A DNA stretch of 53,294 bases from NCBI GenBank assembly GCA_025356245.1, contig JANXUO010000023.1:1-53294 (forward strand), written 5' to 3'. Source of the stretch: Hymenobacter sp. (GTDB lineage: Bacteria; Bacteroidota; Bacteroidia; Cytophagales; Hymenobacteraceae). Below are positions 4,545 to 50,330 of this stretch, piece by piece; position 1 is the stretch's first letter; every line of letters starts with the position of its first letter. Position numbers and translations under genes: made by a program. The notes under the pieces are model-generated. The model ran no database searches, was not told the DNA's origin, and was given only the letters and a program-made list of their open reading frames with translations.

Positions 4545-5699
4545 ATGTATGCCAAGGTAATCAACCCCCAGACCAACGGCCGGAAAGTTTACAATAACGC
4601 TGGCAGTTCTCAGCGGTGCGCGAACTATTTGGCGAAGGAATCTAAGGAAGCCGGCCAGGAAGTCACGTTCTTCGGTGCCCCTGGCACCGAAGCAAAAACA
4701 GTCGCCGAGGTGGTGGAAATGCTTGACGGCAACGCGAAGGGGTTGGGAAAAGACGACCCCAAGTTTCATTCGCTGGTGCTGAGCCCGAGCAGTGACGAGT
4801 TGCTGCTGATTGGCAATAATCCAACGGCGCTGGAGGAATACACCCGCAACGTGATGGACCTCTACGCGAAAAACTTCAACCTCAAAAACGGGCGCGAACT
4901 GGGCGAGGCCAACCTGGTGTGGGCGGCAACCATTCACCAGGAACGCACCAACCGGGGCACCGACGAAGGCGTACAGGGCGAGAAAAAGGACGGACTGCAA
5001 ACCCACGTCCACGTCATGGTATCGGCTCGGGATGCCGCTCAGAAAATCACGCTTAACCCGCTGGGCAAGGCCGACCGTTTCAACCGGGTGCAGTTTCAGG
5101 CCGAGGCCGTGACCCAGATGGAAGTACAGTTTGGGCGGGTCGTACCCCAGGACATGGGCGCTAAAAATCCGACCCGGCAGCAACGGGTGGCGCAGAAAGC
5201 CGAGGAGATAACGCGCAAGGCGGCAGCCAGCCGGGGGGAGAAAAAACCCCTGACCCCGGAACAGATAGCAACCAAGAATGCCCGGCTCGACACCCAGGTT
5301 GCCCGGCTCAATTCCAAGCTTGACCCTGGCTTGCAGCTCGACCCGAACCGGGTGAAAGAGATTGCCTGCGAACGGAAATACGACCAGGTTTTCTATACCA
5401 CACTGGGGCAAATTGAGCGCAACGCCGAGAAAGGAACCTTCACCGCCCAACCCTACGAATACCTGGCCACGGGCCGCGTGGTCCGCGAGCCGCAACTGCG
5501 CACGGGCCGGGCCATCGAACCCAACCGCGAGTTTTCAACCTCCTCTCCCGGGCAGCGGGAGGAGCCAGCCCAGGCGGCGGGGATGCAGGCGCTGGGGCGT
5601 TCGGTCAAAAAGCTGGGCACGGCGCTGGCTCCCAAAGGCCGGACCCAGGACGTGCGCAGCGACGCAGAAAGGGAGCGGGACCACGAGAATGAAATGTAA
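4545..5699 (+). CDS. Relaxase, DUF5712/BfmB-MobB type
   Basis: NAGSS..NYLAKE (catalytic Tyr region), FHSLVLSPS, TIHQER and the HUH motif GEKKDGLQTHVHVMVS. Confidence 0.85.
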   Translation: MYAKVINPQTNGRKVYNNAGSSQRCANYLAKESKEAGQEVTFFGAPGTEAKTVAEVVEMLDGNAKGLGKDDPKFHSLVLSPSSDELLLIGNNPTALEEYTRNVMDLYAKNFNLKNGRELGEANLVWAATIHQERTNRGTDEGVQGEKKDGLQTHVHVMVSARDAAQKITLNPLGKADRFNRVQFQAEAVTQMEVQFGRVVPQDMGAKNPTRQQRVAQKAEEITRKAAASRGEKKPLTPEQIATKNARLDTQVARLNSKLDPGLQLDPNRVKEIACERKYDQVFYTTLGQIERNAEKGTFTAQPYEYLATGRVVREPQLRTGRAIEPNREFSTSSPGQREEPAQAAGMQALGRSVKKLGTALAPKGRTQDVRSDAERERDHENEM

Positions 5700-38051: not shown

Positions 38052-39569
38052 TTAGCTGGCCCGCGCGGTTAAACGAGGCCCCTTTCGCAGGGTTTCCAGC
38101 GTCAGCTGCCACAGATGTTCGTAAGGCACGACTTCCATCTCAGCAAATGCTTCTCCTGGAACGGGGGCCCCGGTTAATTCTTTTACCAGGGAAGCACTGC
38201 GCTCAACGCAAGTACGGGGGTTGAAATCTTCCTCGTGAAGCAGAGCCAATAATTTAAGGAATAAGCGGCTGCGCAGTGTTTCTACTCCTTGCAGGTGCAA
38301 CTGCCGGTACTTGCGCAGGCGTTCCAGCCGAAGGGCTACCTCATCGAGATTGCGGCGGTGCAAGAAATATAGCAGTTGAATTATGAGCACGGCGACGTGG
38401 TAACCCCGCTTGTCGCGGTTGAAATCCGGCAGTGCCAGCGCCCACTGGGCGACGGGCTGGCGAAGCAGCCGGGTGGGGGGCAGCACGAGCACGTCGAGGT
38501 AGGCGCGGTACAACTCCCAACGCTGGCGGTCGGAAACCCGCTGCCCGGCGTAGGCCCCGTTCCGGGTCACTTCCTCGTACACCTGCCGGGCTTGGTCGAG
38601 GGCACCGGTGTGCAGGGCCAAAAGCAAGTGGTTTTCCTGGTAGGAAAACCAGCCATTGGAGGAAGGGTGAAAATCCAGCAGGTGCTGCCGGGCCAGCGCC
38701 AGGCCCTCGCCCGCCCGGCGGGCCCCCAGGTAGCCGTGCGCCATCATGAAATGGTTGTAGCGTTGGTCGAAGCGCCGGGCGTTCAGCCCGCCGCTGGCGG
38801 CCAGGCAGGCGGCTTCCGTGGTCAAACGGATGATTTCCTCGAAATTTCCGCGCACCTGCTGTACGTACAGCTTCGCCCGGTACAGGAAGAAGAACGTGCC
38901 GAAGCTGCCGCCGGCCTGCTGGTGGAGGGCTTCCAGGCGCTCGACGTACTCCGGTAGCTGCGGCAGCAAGCGCCGCTGCGCCGCGATGGCTCCCCCGGCG
39001 GCCATGCGAAACTCGGCGTACAAGTCCTCGGCCTCGCTTTCGGCCTGGTGGCGCTGCCGCCACCAGGCAAGCTCCTGCACCACGCGGCGGTACTTGGCAT
39101 CCTTGCGCTGCAACACGTAGAGGTGGCGCAGGTGACGGGCGGCCAGCAGCCCGTAGTACGTGAAATCGTCCTGCCGCGCCTGCCGCAGGCCCCGCGTTAG
39201 TAAGTACTCGGCCAGCGCGAACGCTCCTTCTTCGATTAAGATAGTGGCCTGGTGCATCGAACTGAGAATGGCCAATTCAGCCCGCCGGCCCACTAGGTGG
39301 CGGGCATCGGAAAAGTCAAGAAAATAAAGGTGGTTGAGCAGCTTGACCTGGAGCCGGCTCCGCAATTGGTAGTAGGCTTCGACTGTGGCCGGCGTATTGC
39401 TGCCGTAAATGCGTTGCACCAGGGTGCTTTGCGTGGCATCGGGAAGTTCGACCAACGCCTGCATCAACTGGTTCTCTTTCGTATTACCGGCATCTTCCGG
39501 TTTGAGCAATGGCAGTCGGGTTAGCCCTCTTGATGTCACAATTCGAGCTAATTGAACCAGATTGTTCAT
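38052..39569 (-). CDS. Putative transcriptional regulator: N-terminal winged-HTH-like region plus TPR-like helical repeats
   Basis: KENQLMQAL..TLVQRIYG..AYYQLRSRLQVKL resembles an OmpR/PhoB-type wHTH. The remaining ~400 aa are all-alpha with TPR-like units such as EGAFALAEYLLTRGLRQA and HTGALDQARQVYEEV. No signal peptide or TM. The ORF is secure; the function is inferred. Confidence 0.7.
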   Translation of the reverse strand: MNNLVQLARIVTSRGLTRLPLLKPEDAGNTKENQLMQALVELPDATQSTLVQRIYGSNTPATVEAYYQLRSRLQVKLLNHLYFLDFSDARHLVGRRAELAILSSMHQATILIEEGAFALAEYLLTRGLRQARQDDFTYYGLLAARHLRHLYVLQRKDAKYRRVVQELAWWRQRHQAESEAEDLYAEFRMAAGGAIAAQRRLLPQLPEYVERLEALHQQAGGSFGTFFFLYRAKLYVQQVRGNFEEIIRLTTEAACLAASGGLNARRFDQRYNHFMMAHGYLGARRAGEGLALARQHLLDFHPSSNGWFSYQENHLLLALHTGALDQARQVYEEVTRNGAYAGQRVSDRQRWELYRAYLDVLVLPPTRLLRQPVAQWALALPDFNRDKRGYHVAVLIIQLLYFLHRRNLDEVALRLERLRKYRQLHLQGVETLRSRLFLKLLALLHEEDFNPRTCVERSASLVKELTGAPVPGEAFAEMEVVPYEHLWQLTLETLRKGPRLTARAS

Positions 39570-39630
39570 GTTTTATTGCTTATTTACAAACATTTAGCTT
39601 TCGGCAGCTTGATGAGGGCGCTGATTTTTG

Positions 39631-39730
39631 ATGTCAGGAAGCCACCGGTTTTTTCCTATTGAGTTGGCTGTCCTTCCTCTACCTTTGATATTGGAATATT
39701 GTGCGTTTTTACAAGCGTTTATGTCAGGAA
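39631..39730 (+). promoter_or_regulatory. Two ATGTCAGGAA boxes in the divergent intergenic region
   Basis: Exact copies at 39631-39640 and 39721-39730, with a TACCTTTG (TAnnTTTG) box between them at 39680-39687. Confidence 0.6.
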
Positions 39731-39939
39731 TCGGCATTTTCTAAAGCCCAACGCCCGGCAATAGTAAGCATTTTCAGGCAATTGGAGCATAAATTATTTT
39801 GTTGATGTAGAAAAGGTTAAGTTTATTATTTTAAAAATACTGGTGAGTTTTAGCGGCTGCCTTTCCTTTTTACGCCGGCTTGACTGGGGGAATTTTGCAG
39901 TGTCAATAACAGACACTCAAACCCTTAACCCCCTAAGCC

Positions 39940-40104
39940 ATGTTGAGCCTGCTTGCCCTCGCCCTCCTCCAGTTGGCTACCCTGACGGGTAGCCCCACCA
40001 CCGGCCAACCCACCCCGCCGGCAACCACTATCCCCACCCCCCCCACCACCCCACCCCCCGCCCCCCAGGCCCCCATCGGGGACGACAAGTGGACCGGTCA
40101 GTAA
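39940..40104 (+). CDS. 54-aa secreted propeptide (not in the ORF track)
   Basis: Hand translation: MLSLLALALLQLATLTGSPTTGQPTPPATTIPTPPTTPPPAPQAPIGDDKWTGQ*. Hydrophobic leader, Pro/Thr linker, distinct C-terminal motif, own terminator. Confidence 0.8.
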   Translation: MLSLLALALLQLATLTGSPTTGQPTPPATTIPTPPTTPPPAPQAPIGDDKWTGQ

Positions 40105-40128
40105 AGCATTCCCAGCCCCCCCGTTGCG

Positions 40129-40170
40129 AAAAGCAAGGTAAGTGACCCCGGTCGCCTACCTTGCTTTTTT
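40129..40170 (+). terminator. Terminator hairpin between the peptide gene and the oppA-like gene
   Basis: AAAAGCAAGGTA ... TACCTTGCTTTTTT. Confidence 0.75.
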
Positions 40171-40193
40171 ATTGGGCCTTACCCACGCTTTAT

Positions 40194-41993
40194 ATGCCGT
40201 CCCGAAATCTGGCTCTTCGCCTCACGCCACGCGTTGCAACGTGGGCGCTGCTGGCCGTTGCCTGCTCCTGCTCCACACCGCCCGCGCCCCCGGTCGCGGG
40301 CGCGGTCCGCATCCGCTGGGCGCAGGACCCGGAGAACCTCGACCCCATGGTGCTGCCCAACCCCCAGGCCATTGAGGCGGCGAACCTGCTGCATGGCAGC
40401 CTGCTGCAACTTGATTACGCGCAGCAGCTTTTTCAGCCCGCCCTGGCCACGGGGCTGCCGGCCCGGCAGGCGCTGGGCGACTCGCTCGCCGTGCTTACCT
40501 ACGAGCTGCGCCCGGAAGCCCGCTGGGACGATGGCAAGCCGGTCACTGCCCGCGACGTTGCGTTCAGCCTCAAGCTGATGGCCTGTCCGCCCGGCCTGGG
40601 CCTCCCCAACGAGGACGCCCGGCTGGCGTACCGCTTTGTCCGCGAGGTGCGGCAGGAAGCCGCGTTCCCGCGCCGCGTGGTGCTGGTGTGCGCCGGGCAG
40701 GCCCCCACCCACCTGCAGGCCACCGGCACCTTCCCCATTTTGCCCGAACACCGCCTCGACGCGGCGGGGCGGCTGCGGCGGTTTTCGCTGGCCGCGCTGC
40801 AAAACTGGCCGGCGACGCATCTGCCGGACACCGGCCTGACGGCTTTCGCGCAACAGTACCACGCGTTTCGGGCCCGCCAGCGGGGCAACAACCTGCCGGG
40901 GTGCGGCCCCTACGCGCTCGCCGGCTGGACCAAGGACGCGCGGCTGACCTTCCGCCGGAAGCCCGCCTGGTGGGCCGACCGCCTGCCAGCTTCTGTCCCG
41001 GCCGTGCTGCGGGCCCCCTGCCCCTTGCTGACGTTCGAGATTGTCCCGGACGAGGCCACGGCAGGACTAGCCTTGCAACGGGGCGAGCTGGACCTCTTCC
41101 CGCAGGTACCGGCCCGCCTCTTCGCCCGGCTGCGCCAATCCGCCGCCGCCCGGCAGGAGCTGGCCTTCCACGCCGCCCCGTCGTTCGAGGTGGTGACGGT
41201 GGCCTTCAACACGCAACGGCCCGGCCTGGCCGACGCGCCCACCCGCCGGGCCCTGGGCCTGCTGCTGGATGCCGGCGGGCTGCTGCAAGCCACCCAGCTA
41301 GGGGAGGGGCAGCGCACGGCCGGCCTGATTGGCCCGGCCGACCCCCGGGCAGGCTGCTGCGACAGCTTGCCGCCGCTCGCCTTCGACCCGCCCCAAGCGG
41401 CGCTGCTGCTGGGGCAGGCCGGCTGGCAACGGCACCCGGACGGGTGGCACCGGCGGGCGGGTACTGCTGCCCCGGCTACCGCTTTGCGGCTGCGCCTGCG
41501 CTACCGCACCGGCGATGCCATGCAGGAAACCATCGCCCTGCAGTTCCGGGCCGCCGCCGCCCGCATCGGCGTGCCGGTGGCCCTGCTGCCCACCGAGGCA
41601 GGGGCGCTGGGCGCGGCCCTGCGGGCGGGCGACTTCGACCTCTGCGTCCGCACCGTCAAGGGCAACCCCTTCTCCTGCAACTTCATGCCCCTGCTGCACT
41701 CGCGGGCGGTGGGGGAGGGCAACGTGAGCCGCTTCGGCACGGCGGCCAGCGACGAACTGCTCGAGCAACTGGCCGCCGCCGCCACCCCCGCGCAGCAGGC
41801 GCGGCTGCTGCGCCGCTTCCAGATAATGGTGCGGGAGCAGGCCCCGCTGGTGCCCCTGTTCGTGGTGCCGACCCGCCTGGCGGCCAGCCGGCGGCTGGCC
41901 GGGCTGCGCGCCTACGGCCTGAAGCCCGGCTACGCCATCACTGCGCTGCACCGGGCCGCGGCCCCCGAACCGGCGGCCGCGCCCGCCCCGTAG
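40194..41993 (+). CDS. Oligopeptide/dipeptide ABC transporter substrate-binding lipoprotein (SBP family 5, OppA/DppA-like)
   Basis: Lipobox AVACS-C, DPENLDP, YELRPEARWDDGKPVTARDVAFS, GCGPY. Confidence 0.9.
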   Translation: MPSRNLALRLTPRVATWALLAVACSCSTPPAPPVAGAVRIRWAQDPENLDPMVLPNPQAIEAANLLHGSLLQLDYAQQLFQPALATGLPARQALGDSLAVLTYELRPEARWDDGKPVTARDVAFSLKLMACPPGLGLPNEDARLAYRFVREVRQEAAFPRRVVLVCAGQAPTHLQATGTFPILPEHRLDAAGRLRRFSLAALQNWPATHLPDTGLTAFAQQYHAFRARQRGNNLPGCGPYALAGWTKDARLTFRRKPAWWADRLPASVPAVLRAPCPLLTFEIVPDEATAGLALQRGELDLFPQVPARLFARLRQSAAARQELAFHAAPSFEVVTVAFNTQRPGLADAPTRRALGLLLDAGGLLQATQLGEGQRTAGLIGPADPRAGCCDSLPPLAFDPPQAALLLGQAGWQRHPDGWHRRAGTAAPATALRLRLRYRTGDAMQETIALQFRAAAARIGVPVALLPTEAGALGAALRAGDFDLCVRTVKGNPFSCNFMPLLHSRAVGEGNVSRFGTAASDELLEQLAAAATPAQQARLLRRFQIMVREQAPLVPLFVVPTRLAASRRLAGLRAYGLKPGYAITALHRAAAPEPAAAPAP

Positions 41994-41995
41994 TC

Positions 41996-43066
41996 ATGGG
42001 CCTGCACTTCCTCGGCCGCCGGCTACTCAACACCCTGGTGGCCCTCTGGGGGCTGGGGTCGCTCGTGTTCCTGCTGGGCCGCCACGACCCGGCCGGAGGG
42101 CCAGAGCAACAGCTTTTGTCCGATGGTACCGAATCGGGCATCGGCACTGAAAGCCGCGACCCGGCCGCAATGGCCGCCGCCCGGCAGGCGGTGCGCCACC
42201 GCCTGGGGCTCGACCAGCCCCTGTTCTATTTGAGCCAACAAGCGCCGGCCGCCGCCAACGGCGCACGGTGGCGGTGGAACGGCACCGCCAACCAGTACCA
42301 CCACTGGCTGGCCCGCCTGCTGCGCGGCGAGCTGGGGCATTCGCTGCGCACGGGCCAGCCGGTGGCCGGCCAGTTGGGGGCCGCGCTGTGCTGTACGCTG
42401 CCGCTCACCGGCACGGCGCTGGCCCTGGCGCTGGGCGCGGCCCTGTGGCTGGGGCAAGGGCTGGCCGGGCCGCGCCGCTGGTGGCAGGGGCCGGTGCGTG
42501 CGCTGCTGCTGGCCCTGCAAAGTGCCCCCCTCTTCGTGCTGGCCCTGGGGCTGTTGCTGCTGCTGGCCAACCCGCAGGCGCTGAACTGGTTTCCGGGGTA
42601 TGGCCTGGCGGACGAGGAGTTGGCCGGCTGGAACCGGCTCGGCGAATTGGCTCGGCACCTCGCGCTGCCGGTCGTCAGCCTCGTGCTGGCGGCCCTGCCC
42701 GACCTGGCCTTGCAACTGGAGGCCGCGTTGCGCCACGAGCTGGGCACCGACTACGCCGCCGCCGCCCGGGCCAAGGGACTGGGCGAGGCGCAACTCATCC
42801 GGCACCACGCCCTGCCCAATGCCCTGCTGCCCACCCTGACGCAGGTCACGGGCCTGGTGCCGGCGCTGCTGGCCGGCGCGTTGGTCGTGGAGGTGGTGTA
42901 CGCCCTGCCGGGCATGGGGCGGCTGTTAGCCGCCGCCGCCGCCCTGCGCGACTACCCGGTCGTGCTGGGCGGGGTGCTGCTGACGGGCGCGGCCCGCCTG
43001 GGGGCGCTGCTGCTGGCCGACGTGCTTTACCACCGGGCCGACCCCCGCATCCGATGGACCAGGTAG
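41996..43066 (+). CDS. ABC permease, OppB/DppB-like
   Basis: RHRLGLDQPL, QYHHWLARLLRGELGHS, DYAAAARAKGL, HHALPNALLP, ADPRIR. Confidence 0.9.
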   Translation: MGLHFLGRRLLNTLVALWGLGSLVFLLGRHDPAGGPEQQLLSDGTESGIGTESRDPAAMAAARQAVRHRLGLDQPLFYLSQQAPAAANGARWRWNGTANQYHHWLARLLRGELGHSLRTGQPVAGQLGAALCCTLPLTGTALALALGAALWLGQGLAGPRRWWQGPVRALLLALQSAPLFVLALGLLLLLANPQALNWFPGYGLADEELAGWNRLGELARHLALPVVSLVLAALPDLALQLEAALRHELGTDYAAAARAKGLGEAQLIRHHALPNALLPTLTQVTGLVPALLAGALVVEVVYALPGMGRLLAAAAALRDYPVVLGGVLLTGAARLGALLLADVLYHRADPRIRWTR

Positions 43067-44010
43067 CGCACCGGCGGCGGCAATACGCGGCGCTGGCCTG
43101 GCTGCTGCTGGTGGCGGGGGCGGGCCTGGCCGCGCCCTATCTGCCGCTGCCCTTCGCGCCCGCCGAACCGGACTTGCTGGCCGTCGGCGTTTCGCCCGCG
43201 CAAGGGGCCGGGGCCGGCCACTGGCTCGGCACCGACCCGCTGGGGCGCGACGTGCTGGCGGGCCTGCTCTTCGGTGCCCGGACGCTGGTGCTGGTGACCG
43301 TGCCGGCCGCCCTGCTGGCGGCGCTGCTCGGGGCCGTGCTCGGCAGCCTGGCCGGCTACGGGCGGCGGCTGGCGGCCCCGGCCCCCGCCTGGCTGCTGGG
43401 GGCGGGCCTGGGCTGGTGGGGGCTGGCCTTGCCCCGCCCGGCGCTGGGGCTGGCGGCGGCGGCCGGGGCCGGGGCGTGGGCGCTGGGCCAGTGGCTGCGG
43501 CATCGGTCGGGGCCGGTCTGGGCGCTTTCTCTGGATGCGCTCATCCAGGGCGCGGGGGCCCTGGTGGGCACCGTGCCGCGGCTGGTGCTGGTGGCGGCGG
43601 TGGCCACCGGCGGGCCACTCTCGCTGACCGGGCTGGGGCTGCTGCTGGTCCTGACCAACTGGCCCGGCCCCGCGCGGCTGGTGCGGGCCGAAACCCTGCG
43701 GGTGCGGGCGCTGCCCTTCGTCGAAGCGGCGCGGGCCCTGGGCCTGCCGGCGGCCTGCATCTTGAGGCGGCACGTACTGCCGCTGGCGCTGCGCCCGCTC
43801 CGCGCCGACCTGCCCCTGCGCCTGGCGGCCTTCGTGGGGCTGGAAAGCACGCTCTCGTTCCTGGGCCTGGGCCTGCCGCCCGACACGGCCAGTTGGGGCC
43901 GCCTGCTCGACGCGGCCCGGCTCGACCCGGCCGCCTGGTGGACCGCCGCCCCGCCGATGCTCGCGCTGCTGCTCACCACGGGCGCGCTGCTCATACTCTC
44001 GAAGAAGTGA
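43054..44010 (+). CDS. ABC permease, OppC/DppC-like
   Basis: HWLGTDPLGRDV, FVEAARALG, ESTLSFLGLG, SWG. Confidence 0.9.
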   Translation: MDQVAHRRRQYAALAWLLLVAGAGLAAPYLPLPFAPAEPDLLAVGVSPAQGAGAGHWLGTDPLGRDVLAGLLFGARTLVLVTVPAALLAALLGAVLGSLAGYGRRLAAPAPAWLLGAGLGWWGLALPRPALGLAAAAGAGAWALGQWLRHRSGPVWALSLDALIQGAGALVGTVPRLVLVAAVATGGPLSLTGLGLLLVLTNWPGPARLVRAETLRVRALPFVEAARALGLPAACILRRHVLPLALRPLRADLPLRLAAFVGLESTLSFLGLGLPPDTASWGRLLDAARLDPAAWWTAAPPMLALLLTTGALLILSKK

Positions 44011-44063: not shown

Positions 44064-44228
44064 ATGTCAGGAATGCCTTATTTTTTGGAAAAAGTGCTTT
44101 GGGCTAAAACAGGTCCGAACAACTTCGTTTGCACATTTTTGAGCGACCTGACCGGTGTCGGGGGAGCCTCGACAACCGATGAGAACTGGTTTTTGGGGCC
44201 ATCAGGCGTACGTTCGAGATGTCAGGAA
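44064..44228 (+). promoter_or_regulatory. Second pair of ATGTCAGGAA boxes upstream of the T9SS cargo genes
   Basis: Exact copies at 44064-44073 and 44219-44228. Confidence 0.55.
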
Positions 44229-44945
44229 AATGGGCAAGTTATCCTTTGATTGGGGCGACGGCCCCCGTAACCTTGTGTCGCCGTTGGGCAACCGGCATAC
44301 TTGCCTGGTCGCGGGCTGCCGCACCTGCCTGCAACCCGCCACCTCACCCGCTTTGCTGACCTGATGTTCAACCCCCAGAATGCCCTACACGGGCCTGTTT
44401 GATGCGAATTCGCTTGCGTCAAACGAACCGGGAATATGCTATCTTTATACCAGCACTTACCTGCTCCGCTCTTCAAATCAGCTCTCGCACCATACCTCAA
44501 CTACGACACCGTTACGCATCACTGCGGCCAGCAGTTCTCAGCACCCTTTTTTTCACTCCCTCATGCTGATTCCGCTACTCTTTCTGAGCCAGCCGCTGTG
44601 CTGGGTCATTCGGCCTGAGCGGCCATCCTTCACTTCTTCCCCTACGACGAAATGAAAGACACCGCCCCGCGCCGCTGGCCGCTCCTGAGGCAGCCCCGGC
44701 ACTACTTCCGCAACCGCAGCACCGAACACTCCGGGCCGGCGGACAAACGGGCACCCCTGCGCGAACAGGGGGCCGTTTGTTCCGCCTTATAAATGGGCCG
44801 GCCCACCGGGAAGGTGCGCCCACCCTTTGCTTCGGATTGCCGGTTCCGGGGCCTCCAACGCGGAGGTACGGGGCAAGGACTCACCGCTTGTGACACGGCA
44901 ATTCGAAAGTTACGAGTCCTGCAAACTTTTAGCTTCGCTAAATCG

Positions 44946-46973
44946 ATGAAATCTTTAAAAACCATGACCAACGCGCTGCTTTTAGCGGCGGGGTTGGCAA
45001 GCGGTGTGGGCCTGACAGCCCGTGCCCAAACCATCACCCTTAACGGCACTACCGCCGCCGCAACTGCGGCGCAGGTGGGCGGCGGCGGGCTGCAATATGC
45101 TTGTACAGCGTACGCGCCAGCCAGCCCACAAAACCAGCAAACCTTCGTTTTCACGCCCGGCGCGAACAACGAGGTGATTGACAAGTGGACGCTGCAAGGC
45201 GACGGCGTGGCCACAACCGGCACCACCGGCACCACGTTCAGCTTTTCCCCCATCGGCTTCGGCAAGGCGCGGGTGACGGTGAACTACTACTACAATACGG
45301 GTGCCACCACGCCCGTGTTCTGTTCCGGCGGCACAGTACCCATCACCTGCCCCGGTGGTGGGCAACTCACCACACCCGTGCGGGCCTACGCCACGCGTTC
45401 GTACGACTTTTTCAAGGTCTTCACGAAGGCACAAGCTGGCTTCGATGTCAAGGGGCCAACGTGTGTGCCAGTAGTCAACCCCTCGGTGGTTTACTCAGTG
45501 GAGCCGGGGGTCATCTCGACTCAGAACCAGATAGCGGCCGGAATCGACATCGACAAGTACACTTGGACTGTTACCTATACCAGCGGGTTAGCTATTGGCA
45601 CTAATGTGCCCAGAATTACCTCTGGCGATGGTAGCACAATAACCATTCCCCAAACGTCGTACACTGGCCCGAACGCCGGTTCTTTCAAGGTTGCGGTTAA
45701 GGTAGGAACGTGTAATACTGTCCAGCCTGATATTCTCGTTACCCTAGTTGGGGATTTAGGCGCTTCGGTTTCCAATTTCCCTGCCTGCATACCGATTGGT
45801 TCGACCGCCAGCACCAGTTTCACCCTTAATACTGTGGCTGGCGTGAATTACACTCTCAACACCACGATTGGCTTGTTGTCGTCCACAACCCCCGTCGTGA
45901 TTCCGGCGGCCAACAGCATCGCTATTACGGGCACAGGGAACGCCGTTACCGTCAACCTAACGGGTATCACAACAACCAACACTGGAACCGTCACTATTTC
46001 CGGTGTGGGTGGCAACGGCAACTGCTTCGGCACCCAAACCATCGTGCGGCAGGTAACGCGGCAACTGGTGGGCGGCACGAACCTCATCACCCCCGTGTGC
46101 GTCACGCCCAATTCCACGGCGGTGCTCACGCTGAGCAACGCCCCGCAGGCAACGGCCGGGCAGGCCATCAACTGGGTGGTGCCGACTGGTGCCGGCTGGG
46201 CCATCACCAGCGGGCAGGGCACCAACGCTATCACTGTCACGACGGGCGCAGCGGCGGCTACGATTACGGCCCAAGCGGGAACCTGCAACAACGGCGGCAC
46301 CGGCATCATCTCGCAGGCGGTGGGGGTCAGCGGCCCGGTGAGCGGCTGCAACCTGACCATATCCAACTCGGGCGGGGCCACACCGGGCTGCTCGTTCACG
46401 GCTTCGGTGCCGGCCGCGCCTTGCCCCCTCAACAACGCCAACCGCTACACAACGTGGCGCCTTTACGACCTGAGCCGCCCGCTGCCTGTGTCCAACCAAC
46501 TGGTGGAAACAGTTACTGTGCCCCTGAACTTTCAAAGCACGGGCTCGATTTCGTTTGCCTACCAAACCAGCATCGCGGGCACGGCCCGCGTAGAGGTGGA
46601 CGTGGTGAACACGGCCCCCGGCGGTTCTTGCCTTCGCAGTACGTTCGGCACGTCGGGCCTGGACTTTGTTTTCTGCCCACCCGGCGGGCGGGCGGCGGCC
46701 CCCGGCAGCAGCGCAGCCGCGAAACTGGCCCGGCAGGAAGTGCGGGCGTATCCTAACCCGTCGAATGGCCTGCTGACTGTTGACCTGACCCCGGCCGAAG
46801 GCACGACCCAACTTAGTTTAGTGGATGCACTGGGCCGCACCGTGCAAACGACGACGACCGACCACGCCCGCGCCGCACTAGACGTGCGCGGGTTGCCCGA
46901 GGGTACCTACACCTTGCGGGCTGTGCGCCCCGGCGGCAAGGTGCTGACCCAAACTGTGCAGGTGCAGCACTAG
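44946..46973 (+). CDS. Cys/Thr-rich secreted protein with Ig/PKD-like domains and T9SS type A C-terminal domain
   Basis: Signal peptide ending ARA-Q, WAITSGQGTNAITVT (PKD-like), C-terminal AYPNPSNG..LVDALGRTV..GLPEGTYTL. Confidence 0.88.
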   Translation: MKSLKTMTNALLLAAGLASGVGLTARAQTITLNGTTAAATAAQVGGGGLQYACTAYAPASPQNQQTFVFTPGANNEVIDKWTLQGDGVATTGTTGTTFSFSPIGFGKARVTVNYYYNTGATTPVFCSGGTVPITCPGGGQLTTPVRAYATRSYDFFKVFTKAQAGFDVKGPTCVPVVNPSVVYSVEPGVISTQNQIAAGIDIDKYTWTVTYTSGLAIGTNVPRITSGDGSTITIPQTSYTGPNAGSFKVAVKVGTCNTVQPDILVTLVGDLGASVSNFPACIPIGSTASTSFTLNTVAGVNYTLNTTIGLLSSTTPVVIPAANSIAITGTGNAVTVNLTGITTTNTGTVTISGVGGNGNCFGTQTIVRQVTRQLVGGTNLITPVCVTPNSTAVLTLSNAPQATAGQAINWVVPTGAGWAITSGQGTNAITVTTGAAAATITAQAGTCNNGGTGIISQAVGVSGPVSGCNLTISNSGGATPGCSFTASVPAAPCPLNNANRYTTWRLYDLSRPLPVSNQLVETVTVPLNFQSTGSISFAYQTSIAGTARVEVDVVNTAPGGSCLRSTFGTSGLDFVFCPPGGRAAAPGSSAAAKLARQEVRAYPNPSNGLLTVDLTPAEGTTQLSLVDALGRTVQTTTTDHARAALDVRGLPEGTYTLRAVRPGGKVLTQTVQVQH

Positions 46974-47006
46974 CTCGTAGCCCCGCTACCCGACCCCTCC
47001 CGATGG

Positions 47007-47047
47007 CTAGGGGCGGCGGGCCTTGTTGGCCCCTTCCCCGCCCCTAG
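47007..47047 (+). terminator. Intergenic hairpin
   Basis: CTAGGGGCGG ... CCGCCCCTAG. Confidence 0.45.
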
Positions 47048-47135
47048 CCGGCCTTGTGCCCCCTGCGGCTGCTCCATCGGGCGGCGGCAGGGGGCTTTGG
47101 GGTTATCCATCCTTCTGCTTTTCCCTCTTCGTACC

Positions 47136-50100
47136 ATGCCGACGCTACCCTTTTGTTCCAGCCCGTTGCGTACCCCGTACCTGCTTGCCTGCTGGCTGGC
47201 CGCCAGCGGCCTGGCACTGCTGGCGCTGACGGCCACGGCCCAGCCCACGTCGCCGCCAGCACCCATTCAGGGTCTACCTTTTTGGACGTGGCAGGCCCCG
47301 CAGCCCACGGGCTACGGCTTCAACGCCCTCCACGTTTTCAACGACTCGACCGTCATCGCCGTGGGCAACCACGGCACGGCCGTGAAGACCACCGACAACG
47401 GGCGCACATGGCAAACCCTGCCCACCGGGGCCGTCGGGGAAGTGGCTTCCGTGTCGTTCGCCAACGACCGCGTGGGTTGGATTGGCACCGAAACTCGCAT
47501 GACCACAGCCCGCCATTACTACACCGGCTCGGGGCAGATGCGGCGCACCACCGACGGCGGCCAGACCTGGACGGCGCAATCCATCGGCGTGGACGTGCTG
47601 AGCGTGGTCAACCCGCAGGTGGTGGCCATCTCGCCCACCGAAGCCTACGTCACGTACCGGCTGACCGGCTACGACCCCTTGGCGGGCATACTGAGCCAGG
47701 AACCGATGATGAGGCACACCGTAAACGGGGGGCAGAGCTGGCAACTGGTGCCGCTTCCCTTCTCCTACAGCGTGAATTTCACCATGTACCCCCCGGTTTT
47801 TCCCACGCCGACCCGGGGGTTCCTAATGGTGAAATCGACACCTGGCCTGACCAGCAACCTGCTGCGGACCACGGACGGGGGCCAAACCTGGCAGGACATC
47901 CTGCCCAGCGTGGCCAGCAACTACCTGCCCTTCGCCCTCACGTTCCTCACCCCCCAACTGGGCTGGCTCCTGGGCTTGGACGTTCCCAGCAACACCAACA
48001 TTTTGTACAAAACCCTCGACGGTGGCACGACCTGGACGCGGGTGGCCCCCCTCGTGGCGGTGCCGGCATCTGCTTATTTTTTGCCCAAATTATCCTTCAG
48101 CGACCCGCTGCACGGCCTGGCGTCGGACGTTACCGCCAATGCCGGCACCGACTACTGCACCACCGACGGGGGCCTGACCTGGGCACCGGGCAGCACGGCG
48201 CTGCCCCTGTCGCTGGGCGGTTTCCGGGCGAACCGGTTGCGCGCCGGGGGCAGTGGCTGGGCCGTGAGCAGCTTCGGCGGCCTCTACCGCACCCGCGACT
48301 ACGGCAACAGTTGGCAGGCCTGCGTGCCCGCGCCCCAGGCGTACCGGTACAAGTCGCTTGATTTTCCGGAACCGACTCACGGCTGGGCCCTTCCCTTGAC
48401 CCTCGACCCAAAGGACCAGACCACCCTGATGCGGACCGCGCGCCGGAGCCAGCCCTGGCAGGCCCTGAAGCTAGACAATGCCTTGCCCGGCGTAGATTAC
48501 ACCAACACCGCGATACAGTGCGTGGCCTTCCCCGACGCCGACACCGGCTGGGTGGCGGTCAGCAGCTCGGTGCAAACCATTCCGCTGTTGCGTACTACCA
48601 ACGGGGGCCGCAGTTGGGTGCCGCAGCCCGTGGGCACCACCCCCGCTGCCGGCTCCCTAACCGACCTGGGCTGCTGGAATACCCAGCGGGCCGTGGCTGT
48701 GGGATACGGACCAGGCGCGGCGCTATTCCGCACCCGCAACGGCGGGCGCACCTGGACAACGGCGGTTAACCCCCTGCCGCGTCAAACCCCGGGCTATGTG
48801 CTGTGGGTCGATTCAGTGACGGTGTACGTCAAAACCGACTCGGCCTATTTTCTTAAAAGCCGCGATGCCGGCCGCACCTGGCAGGCGTTGCCCTTGCCGG
48901 GGATGAATCGAATGTTTAGCTTTCGCCACAAACCGTGCTTTACTTCGGCCACCGTGGGCTACTGGACTGACAGCGGGGGTGTGTGGAAGACCACCGACGG
49001 CGGCCTGACTTGGCGCTTCACCGACCTGAACCCCCTGGCTGACTTCGACCGTGGCGGCAACCGGCAAGTTAGCCTGGCAGGTATCAGCTTCCGCAACGCA
49101 CGAGTGGGTTGGGCCTTTGGCACCAACGTCTTCCAAACCCTGGATGCCGGGCAAACCTGGAGCCTGGTGGCCAACGTAGAAGGCGGCACCGGGGCTGTGG
49201 GCAGCTTTGGACAAGCCAGTTCTGGCCCTAGCGTTTTGATAGACCGCTACAACGCCTTTACCACCGGCAGCGGTATCGTGCGCTACTCCGAGAAGTTCAT
49301 CCAAGCCGACACTTCGGCCGCCCAGCCCCGGCGCTACTGCGCCGGGCAGGACATTACCCTGGCCTACACCAACGAGGGCAGCCTCACCGCCGCCGAGCGG
49401 GCCGCCCTGCGGGTGCAGCTTTCCAACAAGATGGGGCGCTTCCGCAAGGGCCAGGCCTGGCTGCTGGCCCCGGCCCCCGGCGGCACGGCCACCGCCCTGC
49501 GGGCCACGCTGCCCGCCGTGCTGTCAGCGGGCTCCCGCTACCGGCTGCGCGTCATCACGGCCGACAGCGCCCTGCTCGGCGGCGACAACGGCCGCGACCT
49601 GACCATCAGCCCGCTGGCTACGGCCAGCATCAGCCCCGTCGGGCCAACGCTGGCCGTGTGCCAAGGTGCCACAGCCACGCTCACGGCCCCGGCCGGGCTG
49701 GCGCAGTACCTGTGGAGCACCGGGGCCACCACACCCACCATCACGGTGGGCGTGGTGGGTAGCTATACGGTGCAAGTAGCCAGCACGGCGGGCTGCCTGG
49801 GAGCACCCTCGACGGCGGTGGCTGTAACCGTAGTCCCGCTCCCCCCCGCACCCGTACTGGTGCGTAACGTAGCCAGCGGGCAGTTGACCATAGCAGCGCC
49901 GCTGGCAGGAGCTACCTACCGGTGGACGTTCAACAACGGCGTACTGGCGGGCGTGACGGGGGCCCAATACCCGGCCATGGGGGCAGCCCCGGCGGGCACC
50001 TATACAGTGGTGACGGTGAGCGCGACAGGCTGCGCGTCGGTGGCTTCTGCCCCGCTGGTGGTGATTTTGGCCGTGCGGGCCGCGACGCAAACCGAGCTGC

Positions 50101-50330
50101 GGCTCTTCCCCAACCCGGCACGGGAGGTGTTTTTTGTGGAGCGGGCCGAGGGCAGTTCCCCGGCCGAGCTGACGGTGCTTGACGCGCTGGGACGCTGCCA
50201 GTGGCGGGGCACGTTGCGGGGCGGGCAACTCCGGGTGCCGGTGCAAGGGCTGGCCCCCGGCCTCTACGCGGTACGCCTGCACAACGCCGATGGCAGCGTG
50301 GTAGTGCGCCGGATGACGGTGGAGCACTGA
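47136..50330 (+). CDS. YCF48/BNR (Asp-box) beta-propeller protein with T9SS type A C-terminal domain
   Basis: Many TTDGGxTW repeats, YLWSTGATTPTITV, C-terminal LFPNPARE..LDALGR..GLAPGLYAV. Confidence 0.9.
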   Translation: MPTLPFCSSPLRTPYLLACWLAASGLALLALTATAQPTSPPAPIQGLPFWTWQAPQPTGYGFNALHVFNDSTVIAVGNHGTAVKTTDNGRTWQTLPTGAVGEVASVSFANDRVGWIGTETRMTTARHYYTGSGQMRRTTDGGQTWTAQSIGVDVLSVVNPQVVAISPTEAYVTYRLTGYDPLAGILSQEPMMRHTVNGGQSWQLVPLPFSYSVNFTMYPPVFPTPTRGFLMVKSTPGLTSNLLRTTDGGQTWQDILPSVASNYLPFALTFLTPQLGWLLGLDVPSNTNILYKTLDGGTTWTRVAPLVAVPASAYFLPKLSFSDPLHGLASDVTANAGTDYCTTDGGLTWAPGSTALPLSLGGFRANRLRAGGSGWAVSSFGGLYRTRDYGNSWQACVPAPQAYRYKSLDFPEPTHGWALPLTLDPKDQTTLMRTARRSQPWQALKLDNALPGVDYTNTAIQCVAFPDADTGWVAVSSSVQTIPLLRTTNGGRSWVPQPVGTTPAAGSLTDLGCWNTQRAVAVGYGPGAALFRTRNGGRTWTTAVNPLPRQTPGYVLWVDSVTVYVKTDSAYFLKSRDAGRTWQALPLPGMNRMFSFRHKPCFTSATVGYWTDSGGVWKTTDGGLTWRFTDLNPLADFDRGGNRQVSLAGISFRNARVGWAFGTNVFQTLDAGQTWSLVANVEGGTGAVGSFGQASSGPSVLIDRYNAFTTGSGIVRYSEKFIQADTSAAQPRRYCAGQDITLAYTNEGSLTAAERAALRVQLSNKMGRFRKGQAWLLAPAPGGTATALRATLPAVLSAGSRYRLRVITADSALLGGDNGRDLTISPLATASISPVGPTLAVCQGATATLTAPAGLAQYLWSTGATTPTITVGVVGSYTVQVASTAGCLGAPSTAVAVTVVPLPPAPVLVRNVASGQLTIAAPLAGATYRWTFNNGVLAGVTGAQYPAMGAAPAGTYTVVTVSATGCASVASAPLVVILAVRAATQTELRLFPNPAREVFFVERAEGSSPAELTVLDALGRCQWRGTLRGGQLRVPVQGLAPGLYAVRLHNADGSVVVRRMTVEH

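Follow-up and report, generated by a model that had tools for sequence, protein, structure and literature searches.

The DNA analyzed here, a 53,294-nucleotide stretch of a Hymenobacter sp. genome that we call the window (contig C221 of genome G000, which is 82% complete with 3.4% contamination), carries a cassette that most likely represents a peptide signaling family without earlier description. A receptor gene of 505 aa (38052-39569, minus strand; an open reading frame [ORF] call with no Pfam or NCBIfam family) is divergent from a 54-aa propeptide gene (39940-40104, plus strand) that ends in the predicted mature peptide IGDDKWTG(Q), of 890 to 1018 Da (40075-40101). Continuing on the plus strand are oppA (40194-41993; PF00496, E 3e-38), coding for an OppA/DppA-like family 5 solute-binding protein and probable lipoprotein, and the permease genes oppB (41996-43066; PF00528, Opp2B/NikB-like but below equivalog cut-offs) and oppC (43054-44010; PF00528, Opp4C-like but below cut-off), for which the ATG codons at 40194, 41996, and 43054 are probably the true starts. 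With a probability of about 0.62, we propose that the cassette is a peptide signaling circuit in which an 8- to 9-residue core would be exported, re-imported, and bound by a tetratricopeptide repeat (TPR) domain that switches a helix-turn-helix (HTH) domain. An earlier note on this DNA had proposed an arrangement of this kind, and its interpretation is largely supported by the comparative evidence; the 505-aa ORF, the 54-aa ORF ending IGDDKWTGQ, and the SBP_bac_5 and two BPD_transp_1 genes are all where it had placed them.

The propeptide has a hydrophobic leader (approximately aa 1 to 16), a Pro/Thr spacer, and a C-terminal core, and a small ORF that shares this leader and is divergent from the adjoining receptor gene occurs in 73 of 80 loci (L001 to L080, the best 80 of 604 confirmed receptor loci), including 72 of the 75 with at least 5 kb upstream. 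Seven loci lack a propeptide: upstream DNA is nearly absent in L006 and L013, and no propeptide was found in L039, L042, L056, L060, and L067. The leader profile was seeded with 46 of the 73 propeptides, and all 27 nonseed propeptides carry G-x-x-x-W, which the profile does not demand. A second locus set, from which 9 receptors with less than 520 bp upstream were left out and in which some genome loci duplicate the first set, has the propeptide beside 56 of the 64 receptors whose identity is 38% or higher and at 0 of 64 on the opposite strand, with all eight misses in regions fetched as second copies. Its metagenomic part, taken by itself, has the propeptide at 26 of 26 close loci, and the leader profile found it beside 9 of 32 receptors with lower (<38%) identity. 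The ORF is 370 bp from the receptor start in the window and mostly 330 to 390 bp in relatives, whose propeptides range from 47 to ∼250 aa, the longer ones having repeats.

Counting from the tryptophan, all 74 propeptides have a Gly(-4) and a Trp(0) within a core pattern x-G-x-x-x-W-x-x, and there are 1 to 11 or more cores per gene, with 2 to 11 tandem copies in 34 of the 74. Adjacent cores within a gene differ by 225 synonymous and only 4 nonsynonymous changes (proportions of synonymous [pS] and nonsynonymous [pN] differences, 0.39 and 0.002; 34 genes), and in 20 sister pairs the pN/pS ratio is 0.28 in the leader and 0.21 in the core. These comparisons indicate that the propeptide ORF is under purifying selection and not a chance reading frame, bearing out the view that it is conserved beside receptor homologues. 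Identity among cores of the same gene is 98 to 100% from -5 to +2 and falls to 89% at +3 and 62% at -6 (112 comparisons), which delimits the mature peptide to an 8- to 9-mer, and the residues flanking the cores vary freely. These boundaries were derived independently from tandem repeats in relatives, and they match the C-terminal IGDDKWTGQ that had been proposed as the signal. We note that L041 and L115 each have two propeptide genes, that L192 codes for one precursor with two different cores, and that the protein collection contained only two of eight propeptides, both annotated as hypothetical.

A leader followed by repeated cores is also the plan of multi-core precursors of ribosomally synthesized and post-translationally modified peptides (RiPPs), and the small ORF could instead code for a RiPP or bacteriocin precursor, or for a secreted nutrient-scavenging peptide, with its neighbors serving immunity or uptake. 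The binding protein is as near to nickel/metallophore binders as to Opp, and its matches single out no substrate class. We regard this explanation as highly improbable, in that neither a modifying enzyme nor a peptidase-ABC exporter is among the protein clusters common to the 80 loci (6 kb each side), the receptor is near-universal and mostly single copy in the genus, and the core class changes with the receptor clade.

The receptor belongs to a family of 2,361 clusters at 50% identity (E ≤ 0.001), with full-length members of ∼485 to 520 aa and named relatives in Hymenobacteraceae and other Bacteroidota. It is present, mostly as a single copy, in 140 of 150 Hymenobacter genomes (138 of 148 without the unpublished G610 and G627, on which no other result depends), in 63 of 201 genomes of the order (E ≤ 1e-15), and in 35 of 301 genomes of the phylum (E ≤ 0.001), about half of the latter being weak partial matches. 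Two records labeled Janthinobacterium (L019 and L060) carry Hymenobacter-type receptors, and L019 nests among Hymenobacter rows; these contigs are probably mis-binned or mislabeled. TPR hidden Markov models (HMMs) were unmatched in 69 family members, the ESM Atlas returned Bacteroidota clusters without a name (one with TPR_2 in 13% of its members), no relative was found among viral contigs with the query used, and a 149-sequence receptor profile gave 19 matches at E ≤ 1 among PDB sequences, none of them an RRNPP chain. Orphan second receptors without a propeptide occur in genomes of the genus (L304, L308, L309, L310, and L311, four of them at one common site), two receptors flank a lone oppA at L305/L306, and a 546-aa frame at L317 (G000 contig C116:1946-2431) has a weak receptor-profile match (E 6e-6). 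A more distant related receptor family seems to exist across the phylum.

An AlphaFold2 model of the receptor (149 sequences; predicted local distance difference test [pLDDT], 93.5) is all helical, with a three-helix HTH at about residues 31 to 83 and a TPR-like superhelix at about residues 93 to 496. Its top structural match among 48,161 chains (VIA) is NprR-NprX (Z 15.8; root mean square deviation, 4.8; 276 aligned), followed by others including Scc4 (14.5), CNOT10 (14.4), LGN (14.4), RapH (13.8), AimR (13.7), MalT domain III (12.2), and PlcR (12.0), such that RapH, AimR, and PlcR are all within the top 20. Residues 1 to 100 modeled alone (pLDDT 70) match mostly HTH domains (EsrB, WhiA, AfsR, ArlR, DesR, and sigma region 4) at Z ≤ 6.0, and HTH_24 is matched in 4 of 69 family members, only at E ≥ 0.02. 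The regulator had been described as a winged HTH joined to TPRs; the TPR-like superhelix stands, the three-helix domain is probably an HTH, and the wing is rejected, neither the full-length nor the N-domain model having a beta-wing. Tyr55, Arg72, and Lys76 are invariant in the HTH region, and Asn272, Asn306, Asn337, and Asn391 are conserved across the family; in RRNPP receptors a conserved Asn anchors the peptide backbone (PMC6458997). A core with Asp at -3 goes with His in place of Asn391, as seen in three receptors, and Asn306 is replaced by Gly in the window receptor only, whose core has Lys at -1, each being a single event. Co-folding of receptor residues 88 to 500 with the last 30 propeptide residues gave a score of 0.06 (mark, 0.32) and is counted neither way.

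The transporter genes are closely tied to the peptide gene. Among the 72 peptide-carrying loci with at least 5 kb upstream, 68 have a co-directional oppA and 65 have the A-B-C genes in order, and in three rearranged loci (L001, L002, and L023) oppA alone stays near the receptor, as it does in L302, L305, and L306, which may duplicate them. In L302 (8400-17900) the receptor is followed directly by oppA and then by a contractile injection system cluster (Pvc16, sheath, and tube), and L149 (G308) has a split oppA and a short receptor frame of 478 aa, through either decay or assembly error. The oppA product has a Cys after a hydrophobic stretch, and it appears to be an extra binding protein, because five of five genomes carry a separate second one of family 5. 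The cassette has no ABC ATPase gene, and an oligo_HPY ATPase of 600 to 700 aa is encoded elsewhere, unlinked, in five of five genomes.

The earlier note had the opp genes following the peptide gene directly, and gave the latter its own terminator. The first is right as to gene order, with the addition that oppA has its own promoter-like box, TAnnTTGY, 5' of the gene in 60 of 68 loci (as against 5 for the opposite strand and 7.6 for shuffled sequence), resembling motif SM5 of Flavobacterium psychrophilum (PMC9723704). As to the second, the hairpin with a U-run (40128-40169, plus strand) is real in the window (folding z, -5.4), where the TAnnTTGY box at 40157 lies within its 3' arm, and it is confined to the window lineage. 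A conserved terminator is rejected, since only 4 of 73 relatives have a terminator-like hairpin, versus 1.8 in shuffles; sigma-70 and terminator scans are uninformative for Bacteroidota and missed the window hairpin.

The 370-bp gap contains two direct copies of GTCAC-N16-TCCTT-N25-TTTG with a lone box between them, all on the plus strand. The first, P1 (39632-39687), is conserved in the genus alignment and is a predicted regulator site and promoter facing the peptide gene, and in the window it consists of a TGTCAG box, N16, TCCT(A/T), N25, and a -7-like TTTG. The lone box is TGTCAGGAA (39722-39730; TGTCACA in most relatives), and P2, together with a short 5' inverted repeat (39843-39917), is ∼40 nt 5' of the peptide start and has a degenerate box, TCCTT at 39864, and TTTG at 39894. 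The inverted repeat itself (39899-39917), just 3' of the P2 -7-like box, reads GTGTCA..TGACAC in many relatives and is a candidate 5' RNA hairpin or operator; no RNA holder is listed for the cassette region. More generally, the composite element TGTCA(C/G)-N16-TCCTT-N25-TTTG precedes the peptide gene and a few other genes, and its TTTG has the position of the phylum's -7 box, TAnnTTTG (PMC9723704).

Matches to the element are few and cluster at the cassette. A strict pattern has 19 sites in 11 of 15 genomes of the genus and 0 in 10 genomes of other families, and when reversed it matches once overall and never in the genus. Nine of the 19 sites are in the gap from which the pattern was taken, and the 10 outside it comprise 4 after oppC and 6 elsewhere; by regular expression, the element follows oppC in 12 of 68 loci, versus 1 for the reversed form. 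The window lineage has the TGTCAG form, also seen as GTCAG in the sister-clade locus L303, and ATGTCAGGAA occurs 9 times in G000 versus 2.3 expected, 8 of them at two cassettes and 1 on contig C189. The full window-type element is present 5 times in G000 (39632, 44220, and on contigs C42, C189, and C478) and 0 times reversed. The two intergenic boxes agree at positions 5 and 6 in 28 of 31 loci, 24 of the common type and 4 variant. On C189 (L316:1279-3910), a window-type box and composite element lie 5' of a DUF1508 gene and a gene for a 604-aa ThiF-domain protein, adjoining an integrase-like fragment; the motif makes these genes a candidate trans target.

These DNA elements also admit a different assignment, in which the peptide binds the TPR protein and the output is a Rap-like protein-protein contact, or in which the element serves some other factor, for instance an alternative sigma factor. 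The weak HTH matches are compatible with this, as are the non-palindromic form of the element, its promoter-like parts, and the box variants, which map only loosely to recognition-helix residues. We nonetheless think it improbable, given the invariant Tyr55, Arg72, and Lys76 and an element that is scarce away from the cassette and changes in concert in the window lineage.

The cores differ in step with the receptors. There are 89 distinct cores for 114 distinct receptors, and core groups follow the receptor clade on a quick tree. Beyond the window's own family, receptors are accompanied by propeptides that have a similar leader but different cores, namely IDRxED (family f36), IxDPxG (f10), IVIDPLS, IITDDFGG, and more G..W types, and these core classes likewise map onto receptor clades (FastTree). 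The IxDPxG cores are present in 4 to 7 copies; L121:12950-13123 and L124:9838-10041 have 4 and 7 in tandem, each adjoining a distant receptor and with additional orphan receptors in the vicinity.

In the circuit that we propose, the leader would drive the propeptide across the inner membrane and proteases would free the core, of which one to more than 10 identical copies per precursor would raise the peptide yield. The peptide would exit and re-enter through the outer membrane, be imported by OppA-B-C with an ATPase encoded elsewhere, and bind the TPR groove, likely switching the HTH regulator at the common DNA element. The core is very probably the receptor's ligand, and there is a good probability that in this family it passes the periplasm and returns via the linked transporter; action between cells is favored with less assurance. 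The regulator would be an activator, because the box precedes the predicted start by ∼55 to 60 nt and the -7 box tends to be degenerate. We lean toward activation that depends on the peptide and feeds back positively on its gene, as for PlcR, and see AimR-like inhibition by the peptide as the rather less probable of the two. In the window, a diverged specificity variant rides a conjugative element and would control genes for cargo of the type IX secretion system (T9SS).

Several observations weigh against this circuit, in which peptide binding, Sec export, outer-membrane passage, and density dependence are inferred. The agreement of cores with the receptor tree is expected from shared descent alone, and the mutual information between receptor and core (114 pairs; effective number, 51) is not concentrated in the TPR region, its top 30 positions being split 9/9/12 over residues 1 to 90, 91 to 220, and 221 to 505; of the expected co-occurrence and co-variation, the propeptide does co-occur and core classes do follow receptor clades, and the mutual information is uninformative. 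The VIA match establishes a TPR-like superhelix in the model and not kinship with RRNPP, because helical repeats generally score high (eukaryotic TPRs reach Z 14.4 to 14.5, near NprR) and Foldseek gave no match at E ≤ 0.001 for the whole receptor or the N-domain; the HTH-TPR fold that Foldseek had been expected to return is seen in the model and the VIA search. The HTH matches are weak, coming from the low-scoring domain model described above, and their best row is an ISWI module. A looser DNA pattern was dropped, having 8 control matches versus 10. Outside the window's family, a partner ORF was seen by eye within ∼1 kb of only 18 of 59 receptors, one 17-row receptor clade is without any, and an oppA match is present in only 2 of the 59 distant loci (L119 and L158), many flanks being only 1.5 kb; a firm link to Opp is limited to Hymenobacteraceae and a few neighbors. 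Finally, the 6 kb on each side in the 80 loci contain no conserved gene for a protease, exporter, ATPase, or outer-membrane transporter, a peptide of 0.9 to 1.0 kDa needs a route through the outer membrane, and Lys or Arg is present among the first five leader residues in only 2 of 74 propeptides, with Asp or Glu in 38 of 74, unlike a typical Sec signal. The hydrophobic leader that had been noted is conserved and under selection, without the basic N-region typical of Sec substrates. Export route and outer-membrane passage are the weakest links of the mechanism.

The acidic or neutral leader N-terminus would fit a small protein that stays unprocessed as an N-out/C-in membrane tether, its repeats holding the regulator at the membrane while the transporter senses something else; a conserved protease is lacking and many distant pairs are without opp, as such a tether would have it. 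The hydrophobic stretch is only ∼10 to 12 residues, however, with Gln11 in 54 of 74 propeptides, oppA is linked even in rearranged loci, and the core flanks vary freely, and we see little prospect for this explanation. A private loop is somewhat less improbable but still unlikely. Here ligand and receptor would be as proposed, but the peptide would be released to the periplasm and recaptured by the same cell, reporting outer-membrane leakiness, confinement, or growth timing and not the density of neighbors. OppA is periplasm-side, no outer-membrane transporter is conserved in the cassette, and a mass of 890 to 1018 Da exceeds the usual porin limit. Kin-specific signaling between cells is a better fit to the 89 cores for 114 receptors, the more than 10 identical copies, and the variant on a conjugative element, and repeated cores are also found in Phr and NprX (PMC5199041).

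Downstream of oppC, 58 of 80 loci (33 of them seeds) have a gene of 70 to 90 aa with an F-x-T-I-D-G motif, always with opp present, that is annotated as hypothetical and has no Pfam family. It codes for a Gly-rich hydrophobic tail (e.g., L053:1024-1260, minus strand), lies behind a composite element in several loci, and was not found in G000. We consider it a candidate output gene and first target in chromosomal copies; an assignment as a pheromone or bacteriocin precursor is not accepted, the ESM Atlas leads being sub-threshold (0.82). In the window, oppC is followed by a second control region (44065-44275, plus strand), a predicted regulated promoter of the downstream genes with a lone box at 44065 and a composite element at 44220-44275. 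About 680 nt farther on are genes for two predicted T9SS-secreted proteins, one PKD-like and one BNR beta-propeller (44952-50330, starts approximate, plus strand; PF18962 at E 2.6e-9 for the first and, below its cut-off, at 1.7e-5 for the second), which the upstream motif makes candidate regulated targets. The intervening stretch (44380-44960) has only short ORFs without assignment and is possibly a leader RNA.

A second copy of the cassette, on contig C42, has 90% DNA identity to the window across 6.2 kb, an identical core, and a receptor with 95% identity across 280 aligned residues; it keeps the same control arrangement after oppC, including the ∼680-nt stretch, and could come from a co-binned strain, in line with the 3.4% contamination. 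The cassette's regulon is predicted to be small. Conjugative element genes occupy positions 4545 to 35287 (strand not assigned) and include DUF5712, coupling protein, TraM, DUF4138, VirB8, TraG ATPase, Fic protein, Toprim protein, and topoisomerase genes; one Toprim protein, of 2604 aa, also has pentapeptide repeats. No window-type box is near the tra genes, and control of conjugation is therefore unsupported.

The receptor HTH resembles LuxR, OmpR, and sigma-4 types, unlike RRNPP receptors, whose HTH is of the Cro/XRE type. The cassette appears to work like RRNPP systems in logic, and we do not claim RRNPP membership, because no sequence homology was detected, the HTH type differs, and so does the phylum; the RRNPP likeness that had been drawn from the window holds for logic and fold and not for receptor sequence. 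NprR-NprX and PlcR-PapR of Bacillus similarly have an HTH plus TPR receptor adjoining a small propeptide gene with a C-terminal core, and differ in that the cassette has a diderm host, a dedicated oppABC, divergent genes, and a non-palindromic element. Rgg-SHP genes of Lactobacillales are divergently arranged, as are those here. Rgg-SHP and PrgX further share a TPR-like fold without recognizable TPR sequence (PMC9765709) and a propeptide that is no standard Sec substrate (PMC10075063), in contrast to the long spacer, multi-copy cores, much longer receptor, and lack of a linked PptAB-like exporter here. As described in the latter paper, the RRNPP signature is a propeptide of 10 to 100 aa whose gene is -60 to 400 bp from that of a TPR receptor of 250 to 500 aa (validated, 285 to 473), with Sec export (PptAB export for SHP/PrgQ). 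The window propeptide falls within these bounds in both size (54 aa) and adjacency (370 bp), the TPRs are evident by fold and not by HMM, the 505-aa receptor lies narrowly outside the length range, and in place of a Sec signal there is the conserved leader without a basic N-region. Core repeats within the gene and gene duplication are both reported for phr and nprX (PMC5199041; PMC9765709).

AimR-AimP (arbitrium) resembles the cassette in that an all-helical HTH runs straight into a long TPR-like array unseen by TPR HMMs (AimR aligns with receptor residues 2 to 496, Z 13.7), and in having a copy on a mobile element and a small downstream gene as likely output. The sites bound by AimR are two inverted 6-mers with a spacing of 25 bp (PMC6458997), whereas the composite elements here are direct repeats. 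A further difference is that the receptor's relatives, mostly single copy across the genus, were not found in viral contigs with the query used. Peptide signals of other diderms (PatS-HetR, a Thermotoga peptide, and E. coli EDF) differ in design. N-acyl-cyclolysine signaling is in the same phylum, Bacteroidota (as cited in PMC13419125), but uses an enzyme-made small molecule and not a ribosomal peptide.

In a search of the open literature, which takes in few subscription papers, we found no description of this cassette or of any peptide/TPR system in Bacteroidota; PMC9765709 places RRNPPA in Firmicutes, small-molecule signals are those listed for Gram-negative phyla in PMC10075063 and PMC13419125, and PMC12282955 adds nothing to these. 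It is an evenly balanced question whether Bacteroidota own a phylum-wide intracellular peptide quorum-sensing family, sequence-unrelated to RRNPP, with more than 2,000 receptor clusters at 50% identity and at least three core classes (G..W, IDRxED, and IxDPxG). In Hymenobacteraceae such a family would be near-core, with species-specific dialects, multi-copy precursors, a dedicated importer, a 1-kDa peptide that crosses the outer membrane both ways, and conjugative elements with private dialects controlling secreted cargo. Peptide export, re-import, and cytoplasmic sensing are described for Bacillota, and a polymorphic circuit of this kind in a diderm phylum would, if true, extend this view and prompt one to ask how a 1-kDa signal passes the outer membrane. 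It would also give a likely role to a large receptor family now carried as hypothetical, and to small genes that annotation often misses. For dozens of cultured type strains the repeats supply the peptide sequence, and the motif supplies a reporter promoter, such that the proposal would be cheap to test.

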